Positions 8,218 to 64,000 are shown, numbered from the stretch's first letter. The stretch is 64,000 nt of DNA from an uncultured Blautia sp. (GCA_946557785.1 CAMNTH010000008.1:52085-116084); one strand, 5' to 3'. A program made the numbers and translations. Notes: a model not told the origin generated them from the sequence alone.

Positions 8218-8339
8218 TCCTTGATTGCAATTTCGGAATCATAAAATATACTTGATTTATAGAGAAGGCTTATAAAGAAAATGGCGATGAAACACAATAT
8301 GGTTCCACAGAATGCCCAAAGAAAAGAAGGAGGAAAAAA

Positions 8340-9839
8340 ATGAGCGGATTAGTCAAAATAAAGGAAACGCCTAAAGCCAGAATAGGAGTATACAGTGCGG
8401 GTCTTCATGCATATTGGGAACAATTTGAGGGATTGCTGGATTGTCTGATGGGATATAATCGTTTTATTGAAGAGCGGCTTTGGGAGTTTGGAGAAGTCTA
8501 TAATTTTGGTTTGGTGGATACAGAGGACAAAGCACGGGAGGCTGGAGAATATTTTAATAAACAGAATGTTGACATTGTTTTTTCCCATGCGGCAACATAC
8601 TATACAAGTGCCTGCGTACTTCCTGTGCATCAGATTAATAAGGCGCCTGTGGTCATCCTGAACCTTCAGCCAACACCGGAGATGTCCTACGAAACAACAG
8701 GTACAGACCGCTGGCTGGCACAGTGTGTAGGGTGCTCCATTCCAGAAATCTCCAATGCTTTTAACCGTGCAGGAATACCATTTCGGGCAGTAAACGGGCT
8801 TTTGGGACTTCATGAAACCCCGCTTTTCGCAAAAGCGGACGAGGTGACATATGAAAGACCGGAAGCGATTAAGGCATGGAAGGAAATTGAGGACTGGTGT
8901 AAGGCTGCCTGCGTAAAGCGTGTGCTTGGACACGCACGGTTTGGATTCCTTGGCGGATATTACAGCGGAATGCTGGATATGTACAGTGACTTTACCATGC
9001 TGCAGGCGCAGACGGGAATGGATATAGAGGTCCTTGAAATGAGCGACCTGGCGGCATATTTAAAAAACGTTACGGAAGAAGAAGTTCAGGAAAAATGTCT
9101 CCAGGTGGAAAACTTTTTTGAGATATCCGGGGATTCACCATCGGATCCTATTGCACGGAAACCTACAAAAGAACAGATGCATTGGGCGGCTAAGGTTGCT
9201 GCGGCACAGGAAAAAATGGTGAGGGACAGAAATTTAGACAGTGTTTCTTACTATTATCACGGAAGAGATGACTATTTTGAGGAAATACAAAGCGGTTTTA
9301 TCGTGGGATTTTCTCTTTTGAACGCCCAGGGAATTGCCTGTGCAGGAGAAGGGGATATCAAAACTGCCCTTGCTATGAAGATTTCAGATATCTGCGGTAC
9401 AGGCGGAAGCTTCTGTGAGATCGTGGCAGCAGATTTTAACCGCAATACAATGATATTAGGACATGATGGTCCATTTCATTTTGCCATTTCCAAAGGAAAA
9501 CCTATTCTTCGAGGAATGGGAGTTTATCATGGGAAACGGGGCAGCGGCGTATCTGTAGAGGCCAAGGTACGTCCGGGAGCAGTCACGACCCTGGGAGTAA
9601 CTCAGACGGGGGACGGAAGGCTGAAGCTTAATATCAGTGAGGGAGAAGCCATTGACGCTCCCATTTTGCTGAACGGAAATACCTCCACCCATATCCGCTT
9701 TGACCTGCCGCCGGCAGAATATATGGATCGGTGGTTTGCACAGGCTCCAACCCATCATTTGGCTCTTTCTGTGGGACATAATGCAGGCCTGTTTCAAAAG
9801 ATTGCGGAACTTATGAATATTCCTTATGCTATTTATTAA
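8340..9839 (+). CDS. L-fucose/L-arabinose isomerase-like sugar isomerase, substrate unknown
   Basis: ACAGEGDIKT, FCEI...D, GHDG and APTHH motifs of the FucI/AraA superfamily. Confidence 0.85.
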   Translation: MSGLVKIKETPKARIGVYSAGLHAYWEQFEGLLDCLMGYNRFIEERLWEFGEVYNFGLVDTEDKAREAGEYFNKQNVDIVFSHAATYYTSACVLPVHQINKAPVVILNLQPTPEMSYETTGTDRWLAQCVGCSIPEISNAFNRAGIPFRAVNGLLGLHETPLFAKADEVTYERPEAIKAWKEIEDWCKAACVKRVLGHARFGFLGGYYSGMLDMYSDFTMLQAQTGMDIEVLEMSDLAAYLKNVTEEEVQEKCLQVENFFEISGDSPSDPIARKPTKEQMHWAAKVAAAQEKMVRDRNLDSVSYYYHGRDDYFEEIQSGFIVGFSLLNAQGIACAGEGDIKTALAMKISDICGTGGSFCEIVAADFNRNTMILGHDGPFHFAISKGKPILRGMGVYHGKRGSGVSVEAKVRPGAVTTLGVTQTGDGRLKLNISEGEAIDAPILLNGNTSTHIRFDLPPAEYMDRWFAQAPTHHLALSVGHNAGLFQKIAELMNIPYAIY

Positions 9840-54536: not shown

Positions 54537-55275
54537 GTATGACGGCATGCCGCCAGTCTGATGAAAGGTGAAAGTGGATGATACACTTTGACCAAAATAG
54601 TATGGAGCAAGGGATATGGTAATTACTATGGTGCCATATCAAACTATGAATGTATTACGTTCAATGACACAGCTGTGAGGACAATACAGACATGAAACTT
54701 CAATGGAACCAGATAGACTGGACGAGAGCAGAGGAATCAGTTAATAGGTTACAGATCCGGATTGCAAAGGCAACATTGGAACAGAAATGGAGATTGGTCA
54801 AAAGGTTCCGGTATTTAATGACAAGGCGGACAGAATTTCGTTTGGCTTTCGTAAATATAGAAGTCTTGAAGATGCCAGAGAATGCGCATTTAGTGTACTT
54901 AGCAGAAAAGACTCGCCATAATGAATATTGGAAGGAGATATTAAAAGTTGCTTTAATAAAATCAGTCACTAGTGGATAATGGAAAATATTCCAACAGATA
55001 AAAGAATGCTAAAAGAGTTTATGAAATGTGGACATGTAGAAAAAGGAAACTTATTTCCTACATCAGAAGAGTCCAAGTAGCGTAGCTACTTGAAGACAGC
55101 TATGCTGTATAGATGATGGCGGAGGTTCCCAACCACCTAAGGTGCTGTAGTCAAAAGCTATGGTATTGAGCATTAGGGAAAAATTTCGGTAAATTTAACC
55201 CATCGGTAATGAAAGGAGACTTTCACGTACGGTTCCGTGAGAAGTTTGAGGTGAAAATCCTCTTACTTACTTGAC
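54537..55275 (+). mobile_element. Internally deleted group II intron remnant
   Basis: 5' end GTATGACGGCATG (GUGYG-like); RT fragments; 3' D5/D6 TGAAAGGAGACTTTCACGTACGGTTC...CTTACTTGAC. Confidence 0.85.
54692..55080 (+). pseudogene. Group II intron reverse transcriptase fragments
   Basis: QWNQIDW..AEESVNRLQIRIAKA (N-terminal), then in another frame FGFRKYRSLEDA...**ILEGDIKSCFNKISH*W...LFPTSEE; stops and deletions. Confidence 0.88.
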
Positions 55276-57753: not shown

Positions 57754-57786
57754 AAGGTAGGTGAAAGAAAAACACCTACCTTTCTT
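57754..57786. terminator. Hairpin downstream of the recombinase operon
   Basis: AAGGTAGGTG/CACCTACCTT perfect 10-bp stem. Confidence 0.7.
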
Positions 57787-57838: not shown

Positions 57839-58729
57839 TTAAAACAATGCTATCTGTCCATCACTGGCTATGTCAGGAACTTTGGCTGACATATTTTCAT
57901 CAGATAATGGATTTTGTGGTTTTGGTCCTTTGTTCGAATACAATTTGCTCATCGGCAGCGGCTTCTGTGTCTTTTTGTTATAAGCCAGAAGCATTGCTTC
58001 CGCATATCCACGAGAACCGGCACTGCGTTCTCGTGCAGTTCTTGTAAGTTCTTTTAAGGATACTACCCCTAGTTTTTCAATGAAAACATTGTCCTTCATA
58101 GTGTCCCCAAAACAATGTATGAGACGGGCAACACCATTAAGCATGTTTGCACTGAATGATTTTGGACTTCCTTCCCATGCACCAATGATCAGGCGTAGTG
58201 TCCGGTCTAATATCTGAAAACTGTATTTGTCATGGATGGATTCCAGCGTAGCTACAGCACAGATATTTCCGGGAGCAGCTTTGTTTGCAATCTTCATATT
58301 GTAGGATTCTACCAGTGACCGTATAATCAGCTGCTTATCGTTCCCAGCTTCGATGTTTGCCATGAAGATCTCATATGGTGTCAATGACTTGGTATATTTT
58401 GTCTGGTTAGCAAAAATTTCCGCTTCTCTTTGATATTCCAGATCATCATAGATCATGCACCATACCGGCGTTTCACGGGAACCTGATACAAGAGCAACAG
58501 TTTCTATTGTATGCTGGCCGTCAAAAACATAGTTAATGCCATTGCGTCTGCTTACTTTCACTGCATTAATCTGGCAGACATCAAAATTAGTAGCTGTTGT
58601 ATTTACATGCTTATCAGACAATGTTCGTTGATAATTCTGATCGGATACAAGATTTTTGATTGGTATCAGTTCAAAATGGACAGGGGGTATAAAAGGTGCA
58701 AAGCATTGAAAGACTATTTCATTATTCAT
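57839..58729 (-). CDS. ParB-like protein (DUF6551-like)
   Basis: LVSDQNYQRTL...VKVSRR...YVFDGQHT; ends GQIALF. Confidence 0.8.
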   Translation of the reverse strand: MNNEIVFQCFAPFIPPVHFELIPIKNLVSDQNYQRTLSDKHVNTTATNFDVCQINAVKVSRRNGINYVFDGQHTIETVALVSGSRETPVWCMIYDDLEYQREAEIFANQTKYTKSLTPYEIFMANIEAGNDKQLIIRSLVESYNMKIANKAAPGNICAVATLESIHDKYSFQILDRTLRLIIGAWEGSPKSFSANMLNGVARLIHCFGDTMKDNVFIEKLGVVSLKELTRTARERSAGSRGYAEAMLLAYNKKTQKPLPMSKLYSNKGPKPQNPLSDENMSAKVPDIASDGQIALF

Positions 58730-59675
58730 GATATCGTTCCTCTATTCGTTTCCTGATTTTTTCGATACTCTCGGTAAGGTTGAATAATGTTTGCTCCAGT
58801 TTCCAAAGGGCAGAAGTAGATGCATTGCTAAAATCCGTTATCTCTATAGCTCGGTTAATGGAACTGATCCACATTGGTATTGTAAGAGTCAGGCTGGATA
58901 AGTCTGCATCCGGATCATATTTGGGCCTGAGTTTTATTGCCGGTGTAATCTTACGTTCTTCCGCAAGAAGTTTTGCTTTCTTTTTTTCCCGTTCCTGGGT
59001 ACGCATAAGGGATGGCTGCAGTAATCGGTTGTCACGATTATTTACAATATGATCACGGATCACCTGGATTTCTGGTGCAGACATTTTGGAAAGTCCTATT
59101 GTATCGTTCTGTGAAAGGTGGAAAACTGCACGAAGAATATCATCTGCAATTTCCGGACATTTCGCAGCAATCTTATCTATCGCTATAGAATACATTCCAT
59201 ATTTGGAAACTGTTCCTGGAGTAATCTTAACTTTATCTCCTAACAAATCAGCGGCAATGTTTTTGGTGCCAAAACCTTTCTGGTGCCATTTCATATCATC
59301 AGGAGTGTATTGATTTTGATGGCGGTATTTTTCTATCATAATTAATTTCATTGCTTCGTAGAATTTTCCAACACGATAACGAAGCTGTTCAATGGTACCC
59401 TGGTGGCTGGCAAGATGAATCTGACACATATGTGCAACGGCTTCCGGGCGAGAAGCGATATCGACTTCCTTTAGAGTAAAAGGGATTTTTCGTGCATGAT
59501 AGATTTCGTATTCAGAATATCCTGATAAAAGGATTTTTCGCCACACGAGTAAGGGTCTGGATCCATTTTTGATTAGGTCAGCTCCGAGGATGGCCTTTTC
59601 TTCTGAAGAGAGAAGCGTATCAAGCCTCTTGAATTCCGGATCCAGGATTAAATTGTAAATGCGTTGTTCACTCAT
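58722..59675 (-). CDS. Protein with degenerate ParB/Srx-like N-terminus and HTH-like middle
   Basis: LILDPEFKRL..LLSSEE..L...G.RPLLVW..ILLSGYSEYEI; NIAADLLG..KITPGTVSKY. Confidence 0.7.
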   Translation of the reverse strand: MSEQRIYNLILDPEFKRLDTLLSSEEKAILGADLIKNGSRPLLVWRKILLSGYSEYEIYHARKIPFTLKEVDIASRPEAVAHMCQIHLASHQGTIEQLRYRVGKFYEAMKLIMIEKYRHQNQYTPDDMKWHQKGFGTKNIAADLLGDKVKITPGTVSKYGMYSIAIDKIAAKCPEIADDILRAVFHLSQNDTIGLSKMSAPEIQVIRDHIVNNRDNRLLQPSLMRTQEREKKKAKLLAEERKITPAIKLRPKYDPDADLSSLTLTIPMWISSINRAIEITDFSNASTSALWKLEQTLFNLTESIEKIRKRIEERYHE

Positions 59676-60039
59676 TATTTAATTCCTCCTGAGCAGTGGT
59701 TGGTATTGCTTCGTTTAGATTAAAAAGTATCAGATTCTCTTTAGCTACATGAGTACCGTATATTTTGTACATCTGACGTTTCCACGATGGCTCAAATAGT
59801 TTGCAGAGTCTTGTTATCAGTAATTTACTGTAGAATTCGCAGCACTGTTTATCTCCAAAATGGATCCATCTAACTCTTTCACCTGTATTAGTCGGACATT
59901 TCTGAATAGCCAGCATTTTCTGTTCCGGATTGATCAGGAATTGGATATTATTTGGACTGTTCAGAAGGTAAAGAGTCTGTCGGTGGATACGCAGGCGGTG
60001 GATATTACAGTCAATAACTATGGATGGCTGTCTGTTCAT
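59668..60039 (-). CDS. Hypothetical protein, 123 aa; paralogue of the recombinase C-terminal domain
   Basis: Start re-placed at ATG 60039 after GAGGA; IQFLINPEQKMLAIQKC, YKIYG, LILFNLNEA. Confidence 0.75.
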   Translation of the reverse strand: MNRQPSIVIDCNIHRLRIHRQTLYLLNSPNNIQFLINPEQKMLAIQKCPTNTGERVRWIHFGDKQCCEFYSKLLITRLCKLFEPSWKRQMYKIYGTHVAKENLILFNLNEAIPTTAQEELNNE

Positions 60040-60700
60040 AGGTATTATCCTCGCTTTCTGATGAGCCTGATGCGGGTTTAGAAGAAGTTTTGATTGCATC
60101 TTTCTGCAGACCGAAGACTGCCTGACCATTGAATATACTGATCTGCACAGCAGATTTATGGTCAGGTACCGGCATACCAAAGTCATTTTTCCATTCTTCA
60201 AGGAATACTGGAGTACGGGAAATTTTTGTTTTTCCATCTTCTTTAATAGTGCGTTTATAGATTTCCGGAGTATTTAGATCGAAAACAAACAGATATTGAC
60301 CGTTTGCTTTTTTTAGTTTTCCTAGCAGTTTGTACTTGTAATCGATCTGCCAGTTCATAAGAGTAAATACTTTCGCAAAAAACATGCGGCAGGTGATTTG
60401 TTTTGGTGAACGATTGGCGGTAGCAGAACACCAGCGGAAAGAATCTTTTTCATCTTCCATGCAAGGTCTGACTGCCAGTTTCTTCTCATCCGGATTGACC
60501 ATGATCTGAACATAGTCATATTCAGGAAGCTTTTTTAAACATGCCTTGTTTACCTGAACTTTATAATTGTTAAAGGTAAGTGACGGCTCAAAGATGTGGG
60601 AAAAGAATTCGCCGCGAACTACCTGATAGCCTTCAAAGCTAAATTTGTCATCAATTTCTATATCATCCGCCAGAACTTGTCTGTTCATTTCAGCATTCAT
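60011..60700 (-). CDS. Hypothetical protein, 229 aa; paralogue of the recombinase C-terminal domain
   Basis: FEGYQVVRGEFF, VQIMVNPDEKKLAVRPC, YKYKLLG, WKNDFG. Confidence 0.85.
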   Translation of the reverse strand: MNAEMNRQVLADDIEIDDKFSFEGYQVVRGEFFSHIFEPSLTFNNYKVQVNKACLKKLPEYDYVQIMVNPDEKKLAVRPCMEDEKDSFRWCSATANRSPKQITCRMFFAKVFTLMNWQIDYKYKLLGKLKKANGQYLFVFDLNTPEIYKRTIKEDGKTKISRTPVFLEEWKNDFGMPVPDHKSAVQISIFNGQAVFGLQKDAIKTSSKPASGSSESEDNTYEQTAIHSY

Positions 60701-62567
60701 ATTGTGTATTCTCCTTTATTTCTAAAATAATCATGTCTATATGTTTCTTTAAATCACTTTTACTTGTAATATCCGGCAAAGGCTCAGGTTCATAGGTTGA
60801 TTTGATCTCTGTATTCCAGTCTTTTTCGGTAAGGTGGGCAAATTCAAATGCCTGTGCCTGATAATAAAACCCATTCCCGAAGCTGTGAATCCAATCTTTC
60901 GGATACGCAGATACACTTACTTTAGTTCCCAGAGGCTTTACATCATCCTCAAAGAATGGCTTTTCTGACGAATCATAATCCTCTGTTTTTTCCAGGATGG
61001 AATTGGGAATCAATGCTTCTGCATCATGTAGATTAAAGAGAATAAAGCTTTCAGTTCCATATTGCTTTCGTGTTCCGATTACACGGTATTTATAACTTAT
61101 ATTCCAACCAAATAATTCGAACAGATTAGGCAGAAATGCGGAGCCGGAAATCTGTCTTGGATAACGCTGGCCATTTGTAACCGTTGACCAGTGAAGCGCT
61201 GTTTTACTTTTGGATTCTGCAGGTCTGACAGCGAAACAAAATTTTTCCGGATGCACGAGAAATTCCACATGATTAGAATCAAGCTTTCTGACACATTCCG
61301 TGGTGAAAACTACAGTTTTAGATGAAAAAGTAATGCGGATCTGATTGGCGGTATCGAAAAATTCAGCTCTTGCCACTTCATATCCTCTCAGGTCAAATTC
61401 GCCTGATTCAACCGTTACGGACGGCTCCATTTCTTGATTAGACGTTTTATAAAGAGCTGAGTATGCTTTCTTATAATCACTTGCCTTAAAAGCAGCCCAT
61501 CGGGGGTGCACGGTAATAAATCCTTTCAGAATACCAGTAGTGATCACATGCAGTTTTGGAGTGGGATCTGCATTTCCATGCTTTGCACTGGCAATCAAAC
61601 GCTGAACAGCAATGAAATCTGAACGTGAAATGATTGCTTCATGATGTTCTTTTTTTCGATACTGATTGCGGTTCTGTTTGTTCTTTTTAGACTTATGGTC
61701 AAGATAGTTTGGAGTATATGTTTTTCTTGCAAGCACATCACCACAATGGCGTTCATTTTCCAGTTGCTGAAGTACTGTATTGGCTGACCAGGAAGTATTT
61801 CCAAGTTTTGTTTTTCTTTTTAAATCCGTCAAAATCTTTGCAATTTCCTGACAGGTATAGCCATACAGATACATGAAAAAGATCAGGCGGACGGTCTTAG
61901 CTTCTTCTTCATTGATGACTAATGTACCTTCTTCATTATGGTCGAAGCCAAGTAATGGAGGAGTCAGGAAAATACCGCGGCGAAAGCGCATTTCTATGGA
62001 TGCATTCATGATCTCACTTTTGTTATGACTTTCTTCCTGAGCTAGTGTAGAGATAAAGGATAGACTCATTTCGCTGTTACTATGTAAGGTGTAAATGTTT
62101 TCTGTTTCAAAAAACACTCCGATAGGAGGATTGAGAGCAGCAAGCTGGCGGACATAACCGATGCAGTCAAGGACATTTCTGGCAAAACGGGAAACGCTTT
62201 TGGTAACAATCAGGTCGATTTTTGCGGCATGACAATCTTCGATCATCCTTACAAAGGCATCTCTGTGTGACAGGGAAGTTCCAGATATTCCTTCATCTGC
62301 ATATATTTCGACAAGTCGCCATCCTGGATGCCTGCTTACCACATCCTGATAGTGGTTCTTTTGTAATTCATATGAAGAAGTCTGACGTGGATCATCAGTG
62401 GAAACTCTTGCATAGACAGCTACTCTTTTCTCGCTTTCATCATCATAAAAACTTGTCTGAGGAAGAGCTGGGATAACGTCAAGTTCATCTACATTGACAC
62501 CTGTGTATCTGCGGCGTATTTTCTCCTTTTGAGATAATCGGTTTTCTGCTTTTTTGTTGTTATTCAT
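60690..62567 (-). CDS. Large serine recombinase with an atypical C-terminal domain
   Basis: VAVYARVS56T, IYADEGISG, KSVSRFAR, AQEESHNKS, recombinase domain (LGFD, NE.HCGD, HEAII). Confidence 0.93.
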   Translation of the reverse strand: MNNNKKAENRLSQKEKIRRRYTGVNVDELDVIPALPQTSFYDDESEKRVAVYARVSTDDPRQTSSYELQKNHYQDVVSRHPGWRLVEIYADEGISGTSLSHRDAFVRMIEDCHAAKIDLIVTKSVSRFARNVLDCIGYVRQLAALNPPIGVFFETENIYTLHSNSEMSLSFISTLAQEESHNKSEIMNASIEMRFRRGIFLTPPLLGFDHNEEGTLVINEEEAKTVRLIFFMYLYGYTCQEIAKILTDLKRKTKLGNTSWSANTVLQQLENERHCGDVLARKTYTPNYLDHKSKKNKQNRNQYRKKEHHEAIISRSDFIAVQRLIASAKHGNADPTPKLHVITTGILKGFITVHPRWAAFKASDYKKAYSALYKTSNQEMEPSVTVESGEFDLRGYEVARAEFFDTANQIRITFSSKTVVFTTECVRKLDSNHVEFLVHPEKFCFAVRPAESKSKTALHWSTVTNGQRYPRQISGSAFLPNLFELFGWNISYKYRVIGTRKQYGTESFILFNLHDAEALIPNSILEKTEDYDSSEKPFFEDDVKPLGTKVSVSAYPKDWIHSFGNGFYYQAQAFEFAHLTEKDWNTEIKSTYEPEPLPDITSKSDLKKHIDMIILEIKENTQYEC

Positions 62568-62779
62568 AAAATTTGTTCCTTTGACTTATATTGGGATTTC
62601 ATTATAGCGTTGCTAAATACAGAATAAAATGGACTGGCGGTTAAGTTATTAACCACTGGTTATAGAAATGGCCAATTTATTTTGAGATTATTCTGTGTCA
62701 GACTATTTGATTTATTCGATGAGGCTGATAGCAAGAGTAAGGCTAGACTAAGTGGAATATTTTTCAGGAGGAATAAAGT

Positions 62780-63139
62780 ATGGTAGATTTCAAGTTGATT
62801 GGATTAAGAATTAAGGAAAAGCGTTTTGAAGAGCAGATTACACAGGCATATCTGGCGGAGCAGGCAGATCTTTCTCCGCAGTACCTGAGTCAGGTGGAAG
62901 CAGGAAAAAAGAGAATTAGTTTGGAGTCGTTAGTAGAAATTGCAAGGGCATTACATACGACTGTGGATGATTTGTTAACAGGAAATCAGTTTGATACAGA
63001 GGATCAGTATGTAAGAGAAATCAGTAAGCTGTTGGAAGACTGTTCAGTGACAGAGCGGAAAATCATGTTTGAACTGATGGAGACAGTAAAAAAAGTTATT
63101 CATGAAAATATAATTTATTTTGAAAAGACAAGAAAATAA
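62780..63139 (+). CDS. XRE-family regulator divergent from the recombinase operon
   Basis: IGLRIKEKR...TQAYLAEQADLSPQYLSQVEAG. Confidence 0.9.
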   Translation: MVDFKLIGLRIKEKRFEEQITQAYLAEQADLSPQYLSQVEAGKKRISLESLVEIARALHTTVDDLLTGNQFDTEDQYVREISKLLEDCSVTERKIMFELMETVKKVIHENIIYFEKTRK

Positions 63140-63456
63140 ATGAATTGACCGTGAAAATTCAAAGATATCGGATATTTGCCGCTATACCTACTGCAGCAAC
63201 ATGGTGATGTGGGACATGAATACAAAGATGCTTCAATATTTGGATGGAGGACTTTGGAGACAGTGAGGAAGAAACTGGAAAAGGTGAAGGGTGAAAAGCC
63301 TGTATCGCAGAAAATGTTCCGGACAATCTGATAGGGGATGGTAAGACGCTCTGCCTTGACGGGGCGTTTTCTTAATTTTTCGTAAGTATCATTATAGAAA
63401 CTTGTATTTATCAACCACACAGCTTATAATGGAGACTGTGTTAGTGGAGGTGGATC

Positions 63457-63654
63457 ATGACAACATGGGATATGATAAGAGAGTTGTATGAGAAATAGAA
63501 TATTAGTCTTGCGGAGCTTTGCAGACGAATCGGACAGACCCCGCAAAACTTCAATAAGAGGCTGAAGTGAGGTACAGTTTCTTTTGAGAAAATGGTGGAA
63601 ATAGCAGAGGTACTGGATGTTGGATATGAGCAAGTGTTTGTGAAAAGTGTATAG
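63457..63654 (+). pseudogene. Cro/XRE HTH pseudogene with two in-frame stops
   Basis: RBS GGAGG; MTTWDMIRELYEK*NISLAELCRRIGQTPQNFNKRLK*GTVSFEKMVEIAEVLDVGYEQVF. Confidence 0.75.
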
Positions 63655-63770
63655 ATTACATACATAATCCAAGTCTTGCGCCGACTGGTTCAACTGAAAG
63701 AAATACGATTGCACGCCCCGTTTGTTACTTGTGCAAGTGCACAGATGATAATAAAAAAGGAGGTAGAAGA

Positions 63771-64000
63771 ATGATAATTAGTGCAAGTCGAAGGACGGAT
63801 ATTCCAACATACTATTCTGAATGGTTGTTTAATAGACTTAAAGAAGGGGTTGTTCTGGTAAGAAATCCTATGAATATTCATCAGATTGGTAGAATAAATT
63901 TATCTCCTGATGTTGTTGATGGAATCGTGTTTTGGACTAAAAATCCCGTATCAATGCTGGACCGCCTTTCTGAACTGGATAGATATAATTACTATTTTCA
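63771..64000 (+). CDS. DUF1848-family protein (5' part; runs off the window)
   Basis: RBS AGGAGG; MIISASRRTDIPTYYSEWLFNRL...VFWTKNP; absent from the ORF track because it has no stop in the window. Confidence 0.88.
   Translation, partial: MIISASRRTDIPTYYSEWLFNRLKEGVVLVRNPMNIHQIGRINLSPDVVDGIVFWTKNPVSMLDRLSELDRYNYYF

Follow-up and report, generated by a model that had tools for sequence, protein, structure and literature searches.

A serine recombinase encoded together with two stand-alone paralogs of its own C-terminal domain in a cassette of gut Lachnospiraceae

We analyzed a stretch of 64,000 nucleotides from an uncultured Blautia sp. (GCA_946557785.1, CAMNTH010000008.1:52085-116084; "the window" denotes this whole stretch, and positions given without a locus name are counted from its first letter) and observe that an operon on its minus strand encodes a serine recombinase of 625 amino acids (aa) followed by two small proteins that repeat the C-terminal domain of the enzyme. 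This alpha/beta domain of ~130 residues, which we name domain X, is present three times, once fused to the recombinase and twice as a stand-alone gene product, as had been proposed in an original prediction made from the DNA alone; the claim is fully supported by BLASTP, by hhalign and by AlphaFold models. We tentatively propose, with a confidence that falls somewhat short of even, that the two stand-alone paralogs, here called mid and sm, act as catalytically inert accessory subunits or regulators, and that X is a distal DNA-binding and/or subunit-contact domain, an arrangement that would shape the control of recombination. The features that carry this finding are the following:

60690-62567, minus strand: serine recombinase gene, 625 aa, with catalytic and recombinase domains, followed by copy 1 of domain X and by an acidic tail
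61008-61412, minus strand: domain X copy 1, recombinase residues ~386-520, from BLASTP and hhalign against the other copies
60876-60896, minus strand: W-x3-FG end of the homologous extension in the recombinase, residues 558-564
60011-60700, minus strand: stand-alone paralog mid, 229 aa, with domain X copy 2 and the W-x3-FG extension
60251-60652, minus strand: domain X copy 2, mid residues ~17-150
59668-60039, minus strand: stand-alone paralog sm, 123 aa, domain X copy 3 in a minimal version

The homology of the three copies is evident in every comparison made between them. BLASTP aligns the recombinase C-terminus with mid over 146 aa at 32% identity (expect value [E] = 2e-18), and sm is matched by both of the longer copies (E = 9e-7 with the recombinase C-terminus and E = 4e-7 with mid). 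Profile-profile comparison of family alignments by hhalign, a check that the prediction had invited, is significant for all three pairs, namely, recombinase C-terminus and mid (99.9%, E = 2.6e-31, over 188 columns that include the W-x3-FG stretch), mid and sm (97%, E = 1.2e-10), and recombinase and sm (96%, E = 2.2e-9). The motifs quoted in the by-eye alignment of the original prediction were all found where it had placed them, among them FDLRGYEVARAEFF (recombinase residues 391-404) with FSFEGYQVVRGEFF (mid residues 20-33) and DWIHSFG (recombinase residues 558-564) with EWKNDFG (mid residues 169-175). Also as described there, sm is without the N-terminal F-x-x-G-Y-x-V-x-R-x-x-F-F element and without the W-x3-FG extension, both of which are common to the recombinase and mid. 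The (V/I)x(F/I)L(V/I)NP core can be seen in the DNA as well, where it recurs as a direct repeat of three copies (starting at 59923, 60488, and 61245) that are 67 to 70% identical to the reference copy at 59923. Conservation across all three X copies falls chiefly on structural residues (P70, Y123, G127, and hydrophobic positions), and the AlphaFold models of mid and sm agree in the succession of their secondary-structure elements. The order and truncation pattern of the small open reading frames (ORFs) fit a tandem duplication followed by 5' loss, and the mid and sm genes most likely originated as tandem duplicates of the recombinase gene that were then truncated.

The recombinase itself matches Pfam Resolvase (PF00239, residues 49-198, 2e-25) and Recombinase (PF07508, residues 220-326, 1.6e-22), carries its catalytic serine within YARVSTDD (residues 52-59), belongs to PHROG 95 integrase (1.8e-87), and has the catalytic domain 3g13 as its best match in the PDB (5.8e-36). 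With phiC31, Bxb1, the Listeria A118-type LI integrase, SPbeta SprA, TnpX, and CcrAB it shares the succession of a serine catalytic domain and a recombinase domain, a length of ~620 aa, and a presence on Firmicutes phages and integrated elements; it differs from the characterized large serine recombinases in that their zinc ribbon and coiled coil are replaced by the unrelated domain X and an acidic tail. The zinc-ribbon model PF13408 (Zn_ribbon_recom) gave no match to the recombinase in a Pfam scan at E ≤ 0.1, and the same model does match neighboring phage recombinases in locus L008. The C-terminal half of the enzyme has just two cysteines (C425 and C444) and no CxxC pair, and conserved cysteine pairs are likewise absent from the homologous recombinase C-termini. 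A conserved linker, GxLKGFxxxxPRW, precedes X, and the tail that follows X is acidic (isoelectric point [pI] of 4.6, net charge of -10). X is thus shown to replace the zinc ribbon and coiled coil of large serine recombinases, the parts through which those enzymes recognize the outer half-site and control both synapsis and direction.

Domain X is predicted to be a self-contained globular domain of seven strands and two helices rather than an obligate swapped dimer. In the AlphaFold2 models, the core of mid (residues 40-150) has a predicted local distance difference test score (pLDDT) of >90, sm has a pLDDT of 85 and a predicted template-modeling score of 0.78, and both proteins follow the order strand-strand-helix-strand-strand, long loop, helix-strand-strand-strand; the fold comparison rests on these predicted monomer models of mid and sm. 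We observe no family match of X in Pfam, NCBIfam, PHROG, or PADLOC, nothing consistent when 90 X-family members were scanned singly against Pfam at E ≤ 10, no match in PDB sequence and profile searches, and no match at E ≤ 1e-3 when the mid and sm models were compared with the PDB by Foldseek. A sliding-clamp (PCNA) fold tops both Foldseek lists for the PDB, but with a probability of ≤0.25 and E ≥ 2.8e-3 it was judged not significant. Foldseek against BFVD does return uncharacterized phage proteins (E = 2e-5 to 1.5e-3, probability 1.00), led by Gp105 of Lactococcus phage KSY1 (E = 2e-5, target-normalized template-modeling score of 0.68). Gp105 and proteins of the ViI-like phages PhiSH19, phiEa2809, and Menlow have the same predicted fold as X; they are 11 to 17% identical to it, unannotated, and without a known link to a recombinase, and they are uninformative on function.

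The original prediction had also likened the first half of the domain to the swapped-hairpin DNA-binding domains of AbrB and MazE. Only the element order of this suggestion stood, since the strand-strand-helix-strand-strand arrangement of the first ~45 residues of X agrees with AbrB, MazE, and MraZ; no other AbrB likeness was found, and Pfam, PDB sequence search, Foldseek, and hhalign all leave the identity unsupported. PF04014 and MraZ were matched by 0 of the 90 members scanned, no AbrB, MazE, or MraZ structure appears in the Foldseek top 50 of either model, and four X profiles scored a hhalign probability of ≤0.1% against a verified alignment of six AbrB, Abh, SpoVT, MazE, Kis, and MraZ sequences, whose memberships were confirmed by Pfam and among whose groups the positive controls scored E = 4e-4 to 1e-2. 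X is, moreover, ~2.5 times larger than these domains, is a predicted monomer, and has no sequence, profile, or fold match with them. A search for domain fusions hinting at function returned only the recombinase fusions, a few X-X tandems, and one tape-measure chimera that is probably an artifact. No literature description of the domain, of the recombinase architecture, or of the cassette that carries them was found, the paper on Heliusvirales (the phage group discussed below) contains no discussion of either domain or cassette, and we regard X as a new domain.

The three X genes share their operon with two further genes, and the unit is completed by a divergent regulator:

58722-59675, minus strand: p317, a protein of 317 aa with no database family
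57839-58729, minus strand: DUF6551 protein, 296 aa, last gene of the operon
62780-63139, plus strand: XRE-family helix-turn-helix (HTH) regulator, 119 aa, divergent, from PHROG and PADLOC HTH matches and synteny
62568-62779, unstranded: divergent promoter region between regulator and recombinase, from direct sequence reading
63343-63370, plus strand: terminator-like hairpin downstream of the regulator, from a terminator scan
57754-57782, unstranded: hairpin AAGGTAGGTG-N9-CACCTACCTT between the convergent DUF6551 and host XRE genes, from direct reading

The start of mid overlaps the recombinase stop by 11 nucleotides (nt) behind an AAGGAG ribosome-binding site, sm begins at an in-frame ATG at 60039 inside a longer ORF of 189 aa (ribosome-binding site GAGGA), p317 overlaps the sm stop by 8 nt (AGGAGG), and the DUF6551 gene overlaps the p317 stop by 8 nt. 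The length of 123 aa for sm is also found in independent gene calls and in six homologues. Throughout the downstream genes, starts overlap the preceding stops by 8 to 29 nt, each with a good ribosome-binding site, a hallmark of translational coupling within an operon. The same set of five proteins was predicted when genes were called independently on metagenome contigs of identical sequence. Inside the divergent promoter region lies a perfect palindrome, GGTTAAGTTATTAACC (GGTTAA-GTTA-TTAACC, 62639-62654), a candidate that could serve as an operator.

Judging from motif and family matches, the operon probably ends with two different ParB-like proteins. The 296-aa protein matches Pfam DUF6551 (PF20188, 1.2e-35) and the ParB-like PHROG 1033, matches by which it is assigned a ParB/Srx-like nucleoside triphosphate (NTP)-binding fold and is classed as ParB N-terminal-like. 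The literature mentions DUF6551 solely as a fusion partner of the ParB-CTPase fold in NTP-binding phage proteins, and phage proteins that join the two are reported to bind CTP or ATP (bioRxiv 10.1101/2025.10.10.680097, preprint 2025). For p317, the consensus of 34 aligned orthologues holds a ParB N-terminal-like motif (PIxVW..IIDGxxRY..IPF), of which the DG has degenerated to SG in the window, and weak Pfam matches are seen to HTH_7 (5/34 members, best 2.8e-4) and ParB_N (2/34, 0.11).

The X family is large, and its setting is conserved to a high degree. A profile search that was exhaustive over 1.84 billion representative proteins, with clusters formed at 50% identity, recovered 2781 X clusters at E ≤ 1e-3, of which 401 also pass E ≤ 1e-30; the family consists mostly of stand-alone proteins of 160 to 360 aa, with some of ~120 to 160 aa and some that form the C-terminus of ~620-aa recombinases. 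In a scan of one genome per species we obtained 173 matches, mostly in Lachnospiraceae and a few in other Firmicutes. Cultured bacteria are among the carriers matched, namely, [Ruminococcus] torques ATCC 27756, Coprococcus comes MSK.16.63, Blautia luti MSK.16.34, and Anaerocolumna sp. MB42-C2. The order regulator, then recombinase-mid-sm-p317-DUF6551 on the other strand, is essentially invariant in the ~90 related loci examined, is the same in "Candidatus Heliusvirales" phages, and is retained around a distant recombinase found solely by profile search; the XRE regulator adjoins the recombinase in nearly all loci, and 75 of 77 loci have the sm gene in its place after mid and before p317. The co-occurrence of recombinase, mid, and sm with the two ParB-like genes is obligatory, and their expression is coupled. 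All five genes are under purifying selection across ten locus pairs, with ratios of nonsynonymous to synonymous substitution rates (dN/dS) of 0.03 to 0.2 overall, 0.03 to 0.2 for mid, and 0.05 to 0.19 for sm.

Of the three X copies, that of mid is the most conserved. Identity to the window copy is 53 to 68% for mid compared with 52 to 66% for the recombinase, and 30 to 47% for sm and 26 to 44% for p317, and the latter two evolve faster than mid and recombinase. None of the >1100 mid homologues has a Pfam domain, and NCBI names some of them "integrase" without a family model, while the sm homologues are all 123 aa long, down to 48% identity. Cysteines C54, C80, C91, and C104 of mid are invariant across 17 family members and the equivalent positions of the recombinase X are not conserved, so these residues could form a structural metal site specific to mid. 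The X cores of mid and sm in the window are basic (pI of ~9.1). A few polypeptides carry two X domains (P0076, P0288, P0162, and P0143, all metagenome proteins) and are fusions either of mid with sm or of the recombinase C-terminus with mid. A heteromer docked on the recombinase, which the original prediction had envisaged, is in our view plausible; a physical association is circumstantially indicated by the operon coupling, the basic X cores of mid and sm, the rare mid-sm fusions, and the presence of sm in those 75 of 77 loci.

In the mechanism that we favor, X would act as the distal site-binding and/or subunit-contact domain of the recombinase, and mid and sm, being catalytically inert, would occupy X-type DNA subsites near the crossover sites or pair with the X of the recombinase. 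In this way they might assemble the synaptic complex or gate it and thus set the timing and direction of recombination, supplying the control that in canonical enzymes is given by the coiled coil and an unrelated directionality factor. The paralogs could either activate recombination or inhibit it. A more far-reaching proposal, which we put forward as possible but rather doubtful, is that of a new multisubunit serine-recombinase machine in which X-only paralogs, possibly together with ParB-like switches, give site choice and directionality within a self-mobile cassette of ~5.5 kb; such a cassette would ride on gut phages and genomic islands, and its mechanism would be unlike the logic of coiled coil and directionality factor.

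Parts of the mechanism have precedents in known systems, none of which coincides with the arrangement seen here. As small element-encoded partners of an integrase, mid and sm are candidates for the role of directionality factors such as phiC31 gp3, Bxb1 gp47, SPbeta SprB, and TP901-1 Orf7. To our knowledge, none of the known factors is homologous to a domain of its own integrase, and they act on the zinc-ribbon/coiled-coil region, whereas mid and sm are two paralogs of the enzyme's own C-terminal domain and that target region is absent here. A stand-alone copy of a recombinase's noncatalytic domain is known from the Mu repressor, which shares its DNA-binding domain with MuA, and from the insertion sequences IS1 (InsA and InsAB') and IS911 (OrfA and OrfAB), and in Tn5 the transposase is held in inactive complexes by an inhibitor protein. 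The Mu and IS enzymes are, however, DDE transposases, with IS products made by frameshifting instead of gene duplication, while in the present operon it is a serine recombinase that shares its C-terminal domain, and it does so with two paralogs that have diverged. The concept of noncatalytic subunits that impose topology and direction from accessory sites is likewise familiar from resolvase and Sin synaptosomes. At res sites II and III of Tn3/gamma-delta, and with Sin and HU, the accessory sites are filled by the full-length enzyme itself or by a protein of the host; here the subunits would be dedicated truncated paralogs, and no such site came to light.

With respect to mobility, the distribution of the cassette (regulator plus five genes) suggests a discrete unit of ~5.2 to 5.7 kb that is found in many genomic contexts. 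In locus L011, a segment of 5.24 kb extends ~375 bp beyond the regulator on one side and 13 bp beyond the stop codon of DUF6551 on the other, and in metagenome contig L110 an unrelated gene of 1.4 kb replaces this segment between unchanged flanking genes; L110 is the sole related metagenome contig for this cassette and brackets its edges, with no clean bacterial attachment site (attB) as an empty site. In locus L092, a cassette of 5.65 kb lies between direct repeats of 83 nt with 86% identity (2652-2733 and 8305-8387), with a hairpin inside the repeat; the left copy precedes a scaffold gap of Ns, and an assembly effect is possible. By analogy with the L011/L110 and L092 edges, the terminator-like hairpin at 63343-63370 is probably near the regulator-side edge in the window, where the cassette would span from just beyond 57839 to about this terminator, and we infer that the hairpin at 57754-57782 marks the end of the operon, close to the opposite cassette edge. 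The L038-type cassette (L038-L068) is 93 to 99% identical across Coprococcus, Blautia, Dorea, Anaerostipes, Muricoprocola, and other genera, which indicates recent horizontal spread; it adjoins an MmeI-like restriction-modification gene and has its right edge ~424 bp past DUF6551 (L038:~11290), beside a type II/IV secretion ATPase gene. In temperate "Ca. Heliusvirales" phages (e.g., PV036411.1), the cassette is found between the end of the lysogeny switch and a convergent pair of canonical zinc-ribbon recombinases, which lysis genes follow, with the DUF6551 stop 2 bp from a recombinase stop (L008, 10033-12347; L102, that is, PV036411.1, 3928-6271). The cassette-bearing phages have three serine recombinases each, and the related phage PV036429.1 has the recombinase pair and no cassette.

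At the regulator end of the cassette, a DUF1848 gene is shared by two loci that are not related in other respects (the window, 63772-64000 and beyond, corresponding to L094 10777-11718, and L011 3522-4454), and the two proteins are 52% identical. L110 shows the same DUF1848-GrpB neighborhood with a different gene in place of the cassette, and the neighborhood could be a hotspot of variation or a target that is favored. Between the cassette regulator and the DUF1848 gene of the window, an XRE-like HTH frame on the plus strand (63455-63655) is interrupted by in-frame stops (MTTWDMIRELYEK, stop, NISLAELCRRIGQTPQNFNKRLK, stop, and onward) and looks like a pseudogene. Farther away, an ORF of 95 aa at 54692-54979 (L094 1698-1985), upstream of an AraC-type regulator gene, has a precomputed Pfam match to RVT_N and looks like a fragment of a retroelement.

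Several observations count against the role that we assign to the paralogs and against self-mobility. No characterized DNA-binding protein is related to the X fold, most members of the mid family are acidic over their full length (median pI of 5.7), and the X-X fusions are metagenome singletons that are possibly frameshift or assembly artifacts, their source genes overlapping out of frame. The two canonical zinc-ribbon recombinases beside the Heliusvirales cassette could be the real integrases. Across 29 diverse cassettes we found no consistent terminal inverted or direct repeats and no common attachment (att) motif, and a flank comparison of 29 or more loci by shared words and sensitive blastn gave chance-level similarity only, save for L092 and two weak cases. 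The metagenome contigs with the flanking XRE gene all carry the cassette, that is, no empty site is seen, and no excision junction occurs among the metagenome contigs aligned to the region. These observations leave room for the reading that the cassette is not a mobility system at all but serves maintenance, exclusion, or defense, with X as a protein-protein adaptor, for example to ParB-like NTP switches. The variable region that the cassette occupies in Heliusvirales beside two large serine recombinases able to do the integration, the related phage that keeps this pair without the cassette, the MmeI-type gene next to other copies, and the lack of att-like repeats in the flank comparisons are all in line with it. 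We nevertheless consider this reading unlikely, given that the recombinase retains its catalytic and recombinase domains under purifying selection, that the cassette also occurs alone as a discrete insertion with no other recombinase within reach, and that PADLOC at E ≤ 0.1 matched none of the five operon proteins and the XRE regulator only to generic HTH models. A known defense system is rejected on the same PADLOC result.

A close rival to accessory subunits is found in the idea that mid and/or sm are decoys or repressors, competing for the DNA sites of the recombinase X or forming inactive mixed oligomers and thus keeping the element quiescent. It would fit that mid spans the whole C-terminal module of the recombinase without the catalytic and recombinase domains, that cotranslation from one operon would fix the ratio of decoy to enzyme, and that the residues common to the three X copies are mainly structural, so that surfaces could have diverged for competition or pairing. 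A decoy in the same transcript as its target enzyme is, however, an odd design unless translation rates differ, and the retention of two distinct paralogs in nearly all loci points to separate roles over titration; we give this idea about one chance in five. The model put forward in the original prediction, in which X is of the AbrB/MazE swapped-hairpin type and its three copies assemble into an AbrB-like heteromer docked on the recombinase, agrees with the half-barrel order in the first half of both AlphaFold models and is compatible with the operon coupling, which would suit a complex. It is very improbable in light of the negative Pfam, PDB, Foldseek, and hhalign results, obtained while the controls score, and of confident monomer models that contain three extra strands and a second helix. 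That the small ORFs are functionless, decaying leftovers of duplicated recombinase genes would be in line with their order and truncation, which fit tandem duplication and loss of the 5' part. This idea is excluded for practical purposes by the purifying selection on mid and sm, and it is further contradicted by the conserved lengths, the 173 genome matches, the intact ribosome-binding sites, and the conservation of mid, which is as high as that of the recombinase.

Among these readings we tentatively retain that of inert accessory subunits or regulators, which would bear on how serine recombination can be controlled. Serine integrases are major tools of genome engineering, and models of their site choice and direction rest on the zinc-ribbon/coiled-coil region and on unrelated directionality factors. 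What is new in the present system is a serine recombinase whose C-terminal module departs from the usual one and whose candidate accessory proteins are paralogs of that module, and it would be more interesting still if the paralogs control directionality. If mid and sm are subunits or regulators, directionality would be controlled here in another manner, and new recombinase systems that can be controlled separately might be drawn from this clade, and a role would be given to a large protein family that NCBI labels just "integrase" or leaves unnamed. The clade is abundant in the gut, with at least 2781 sequence clusters, 173 species genomes, and the widespread "Ca. Heliusvirales" phages, and its compact cassette is spreading among the genera of gut Lachnospiraceae.

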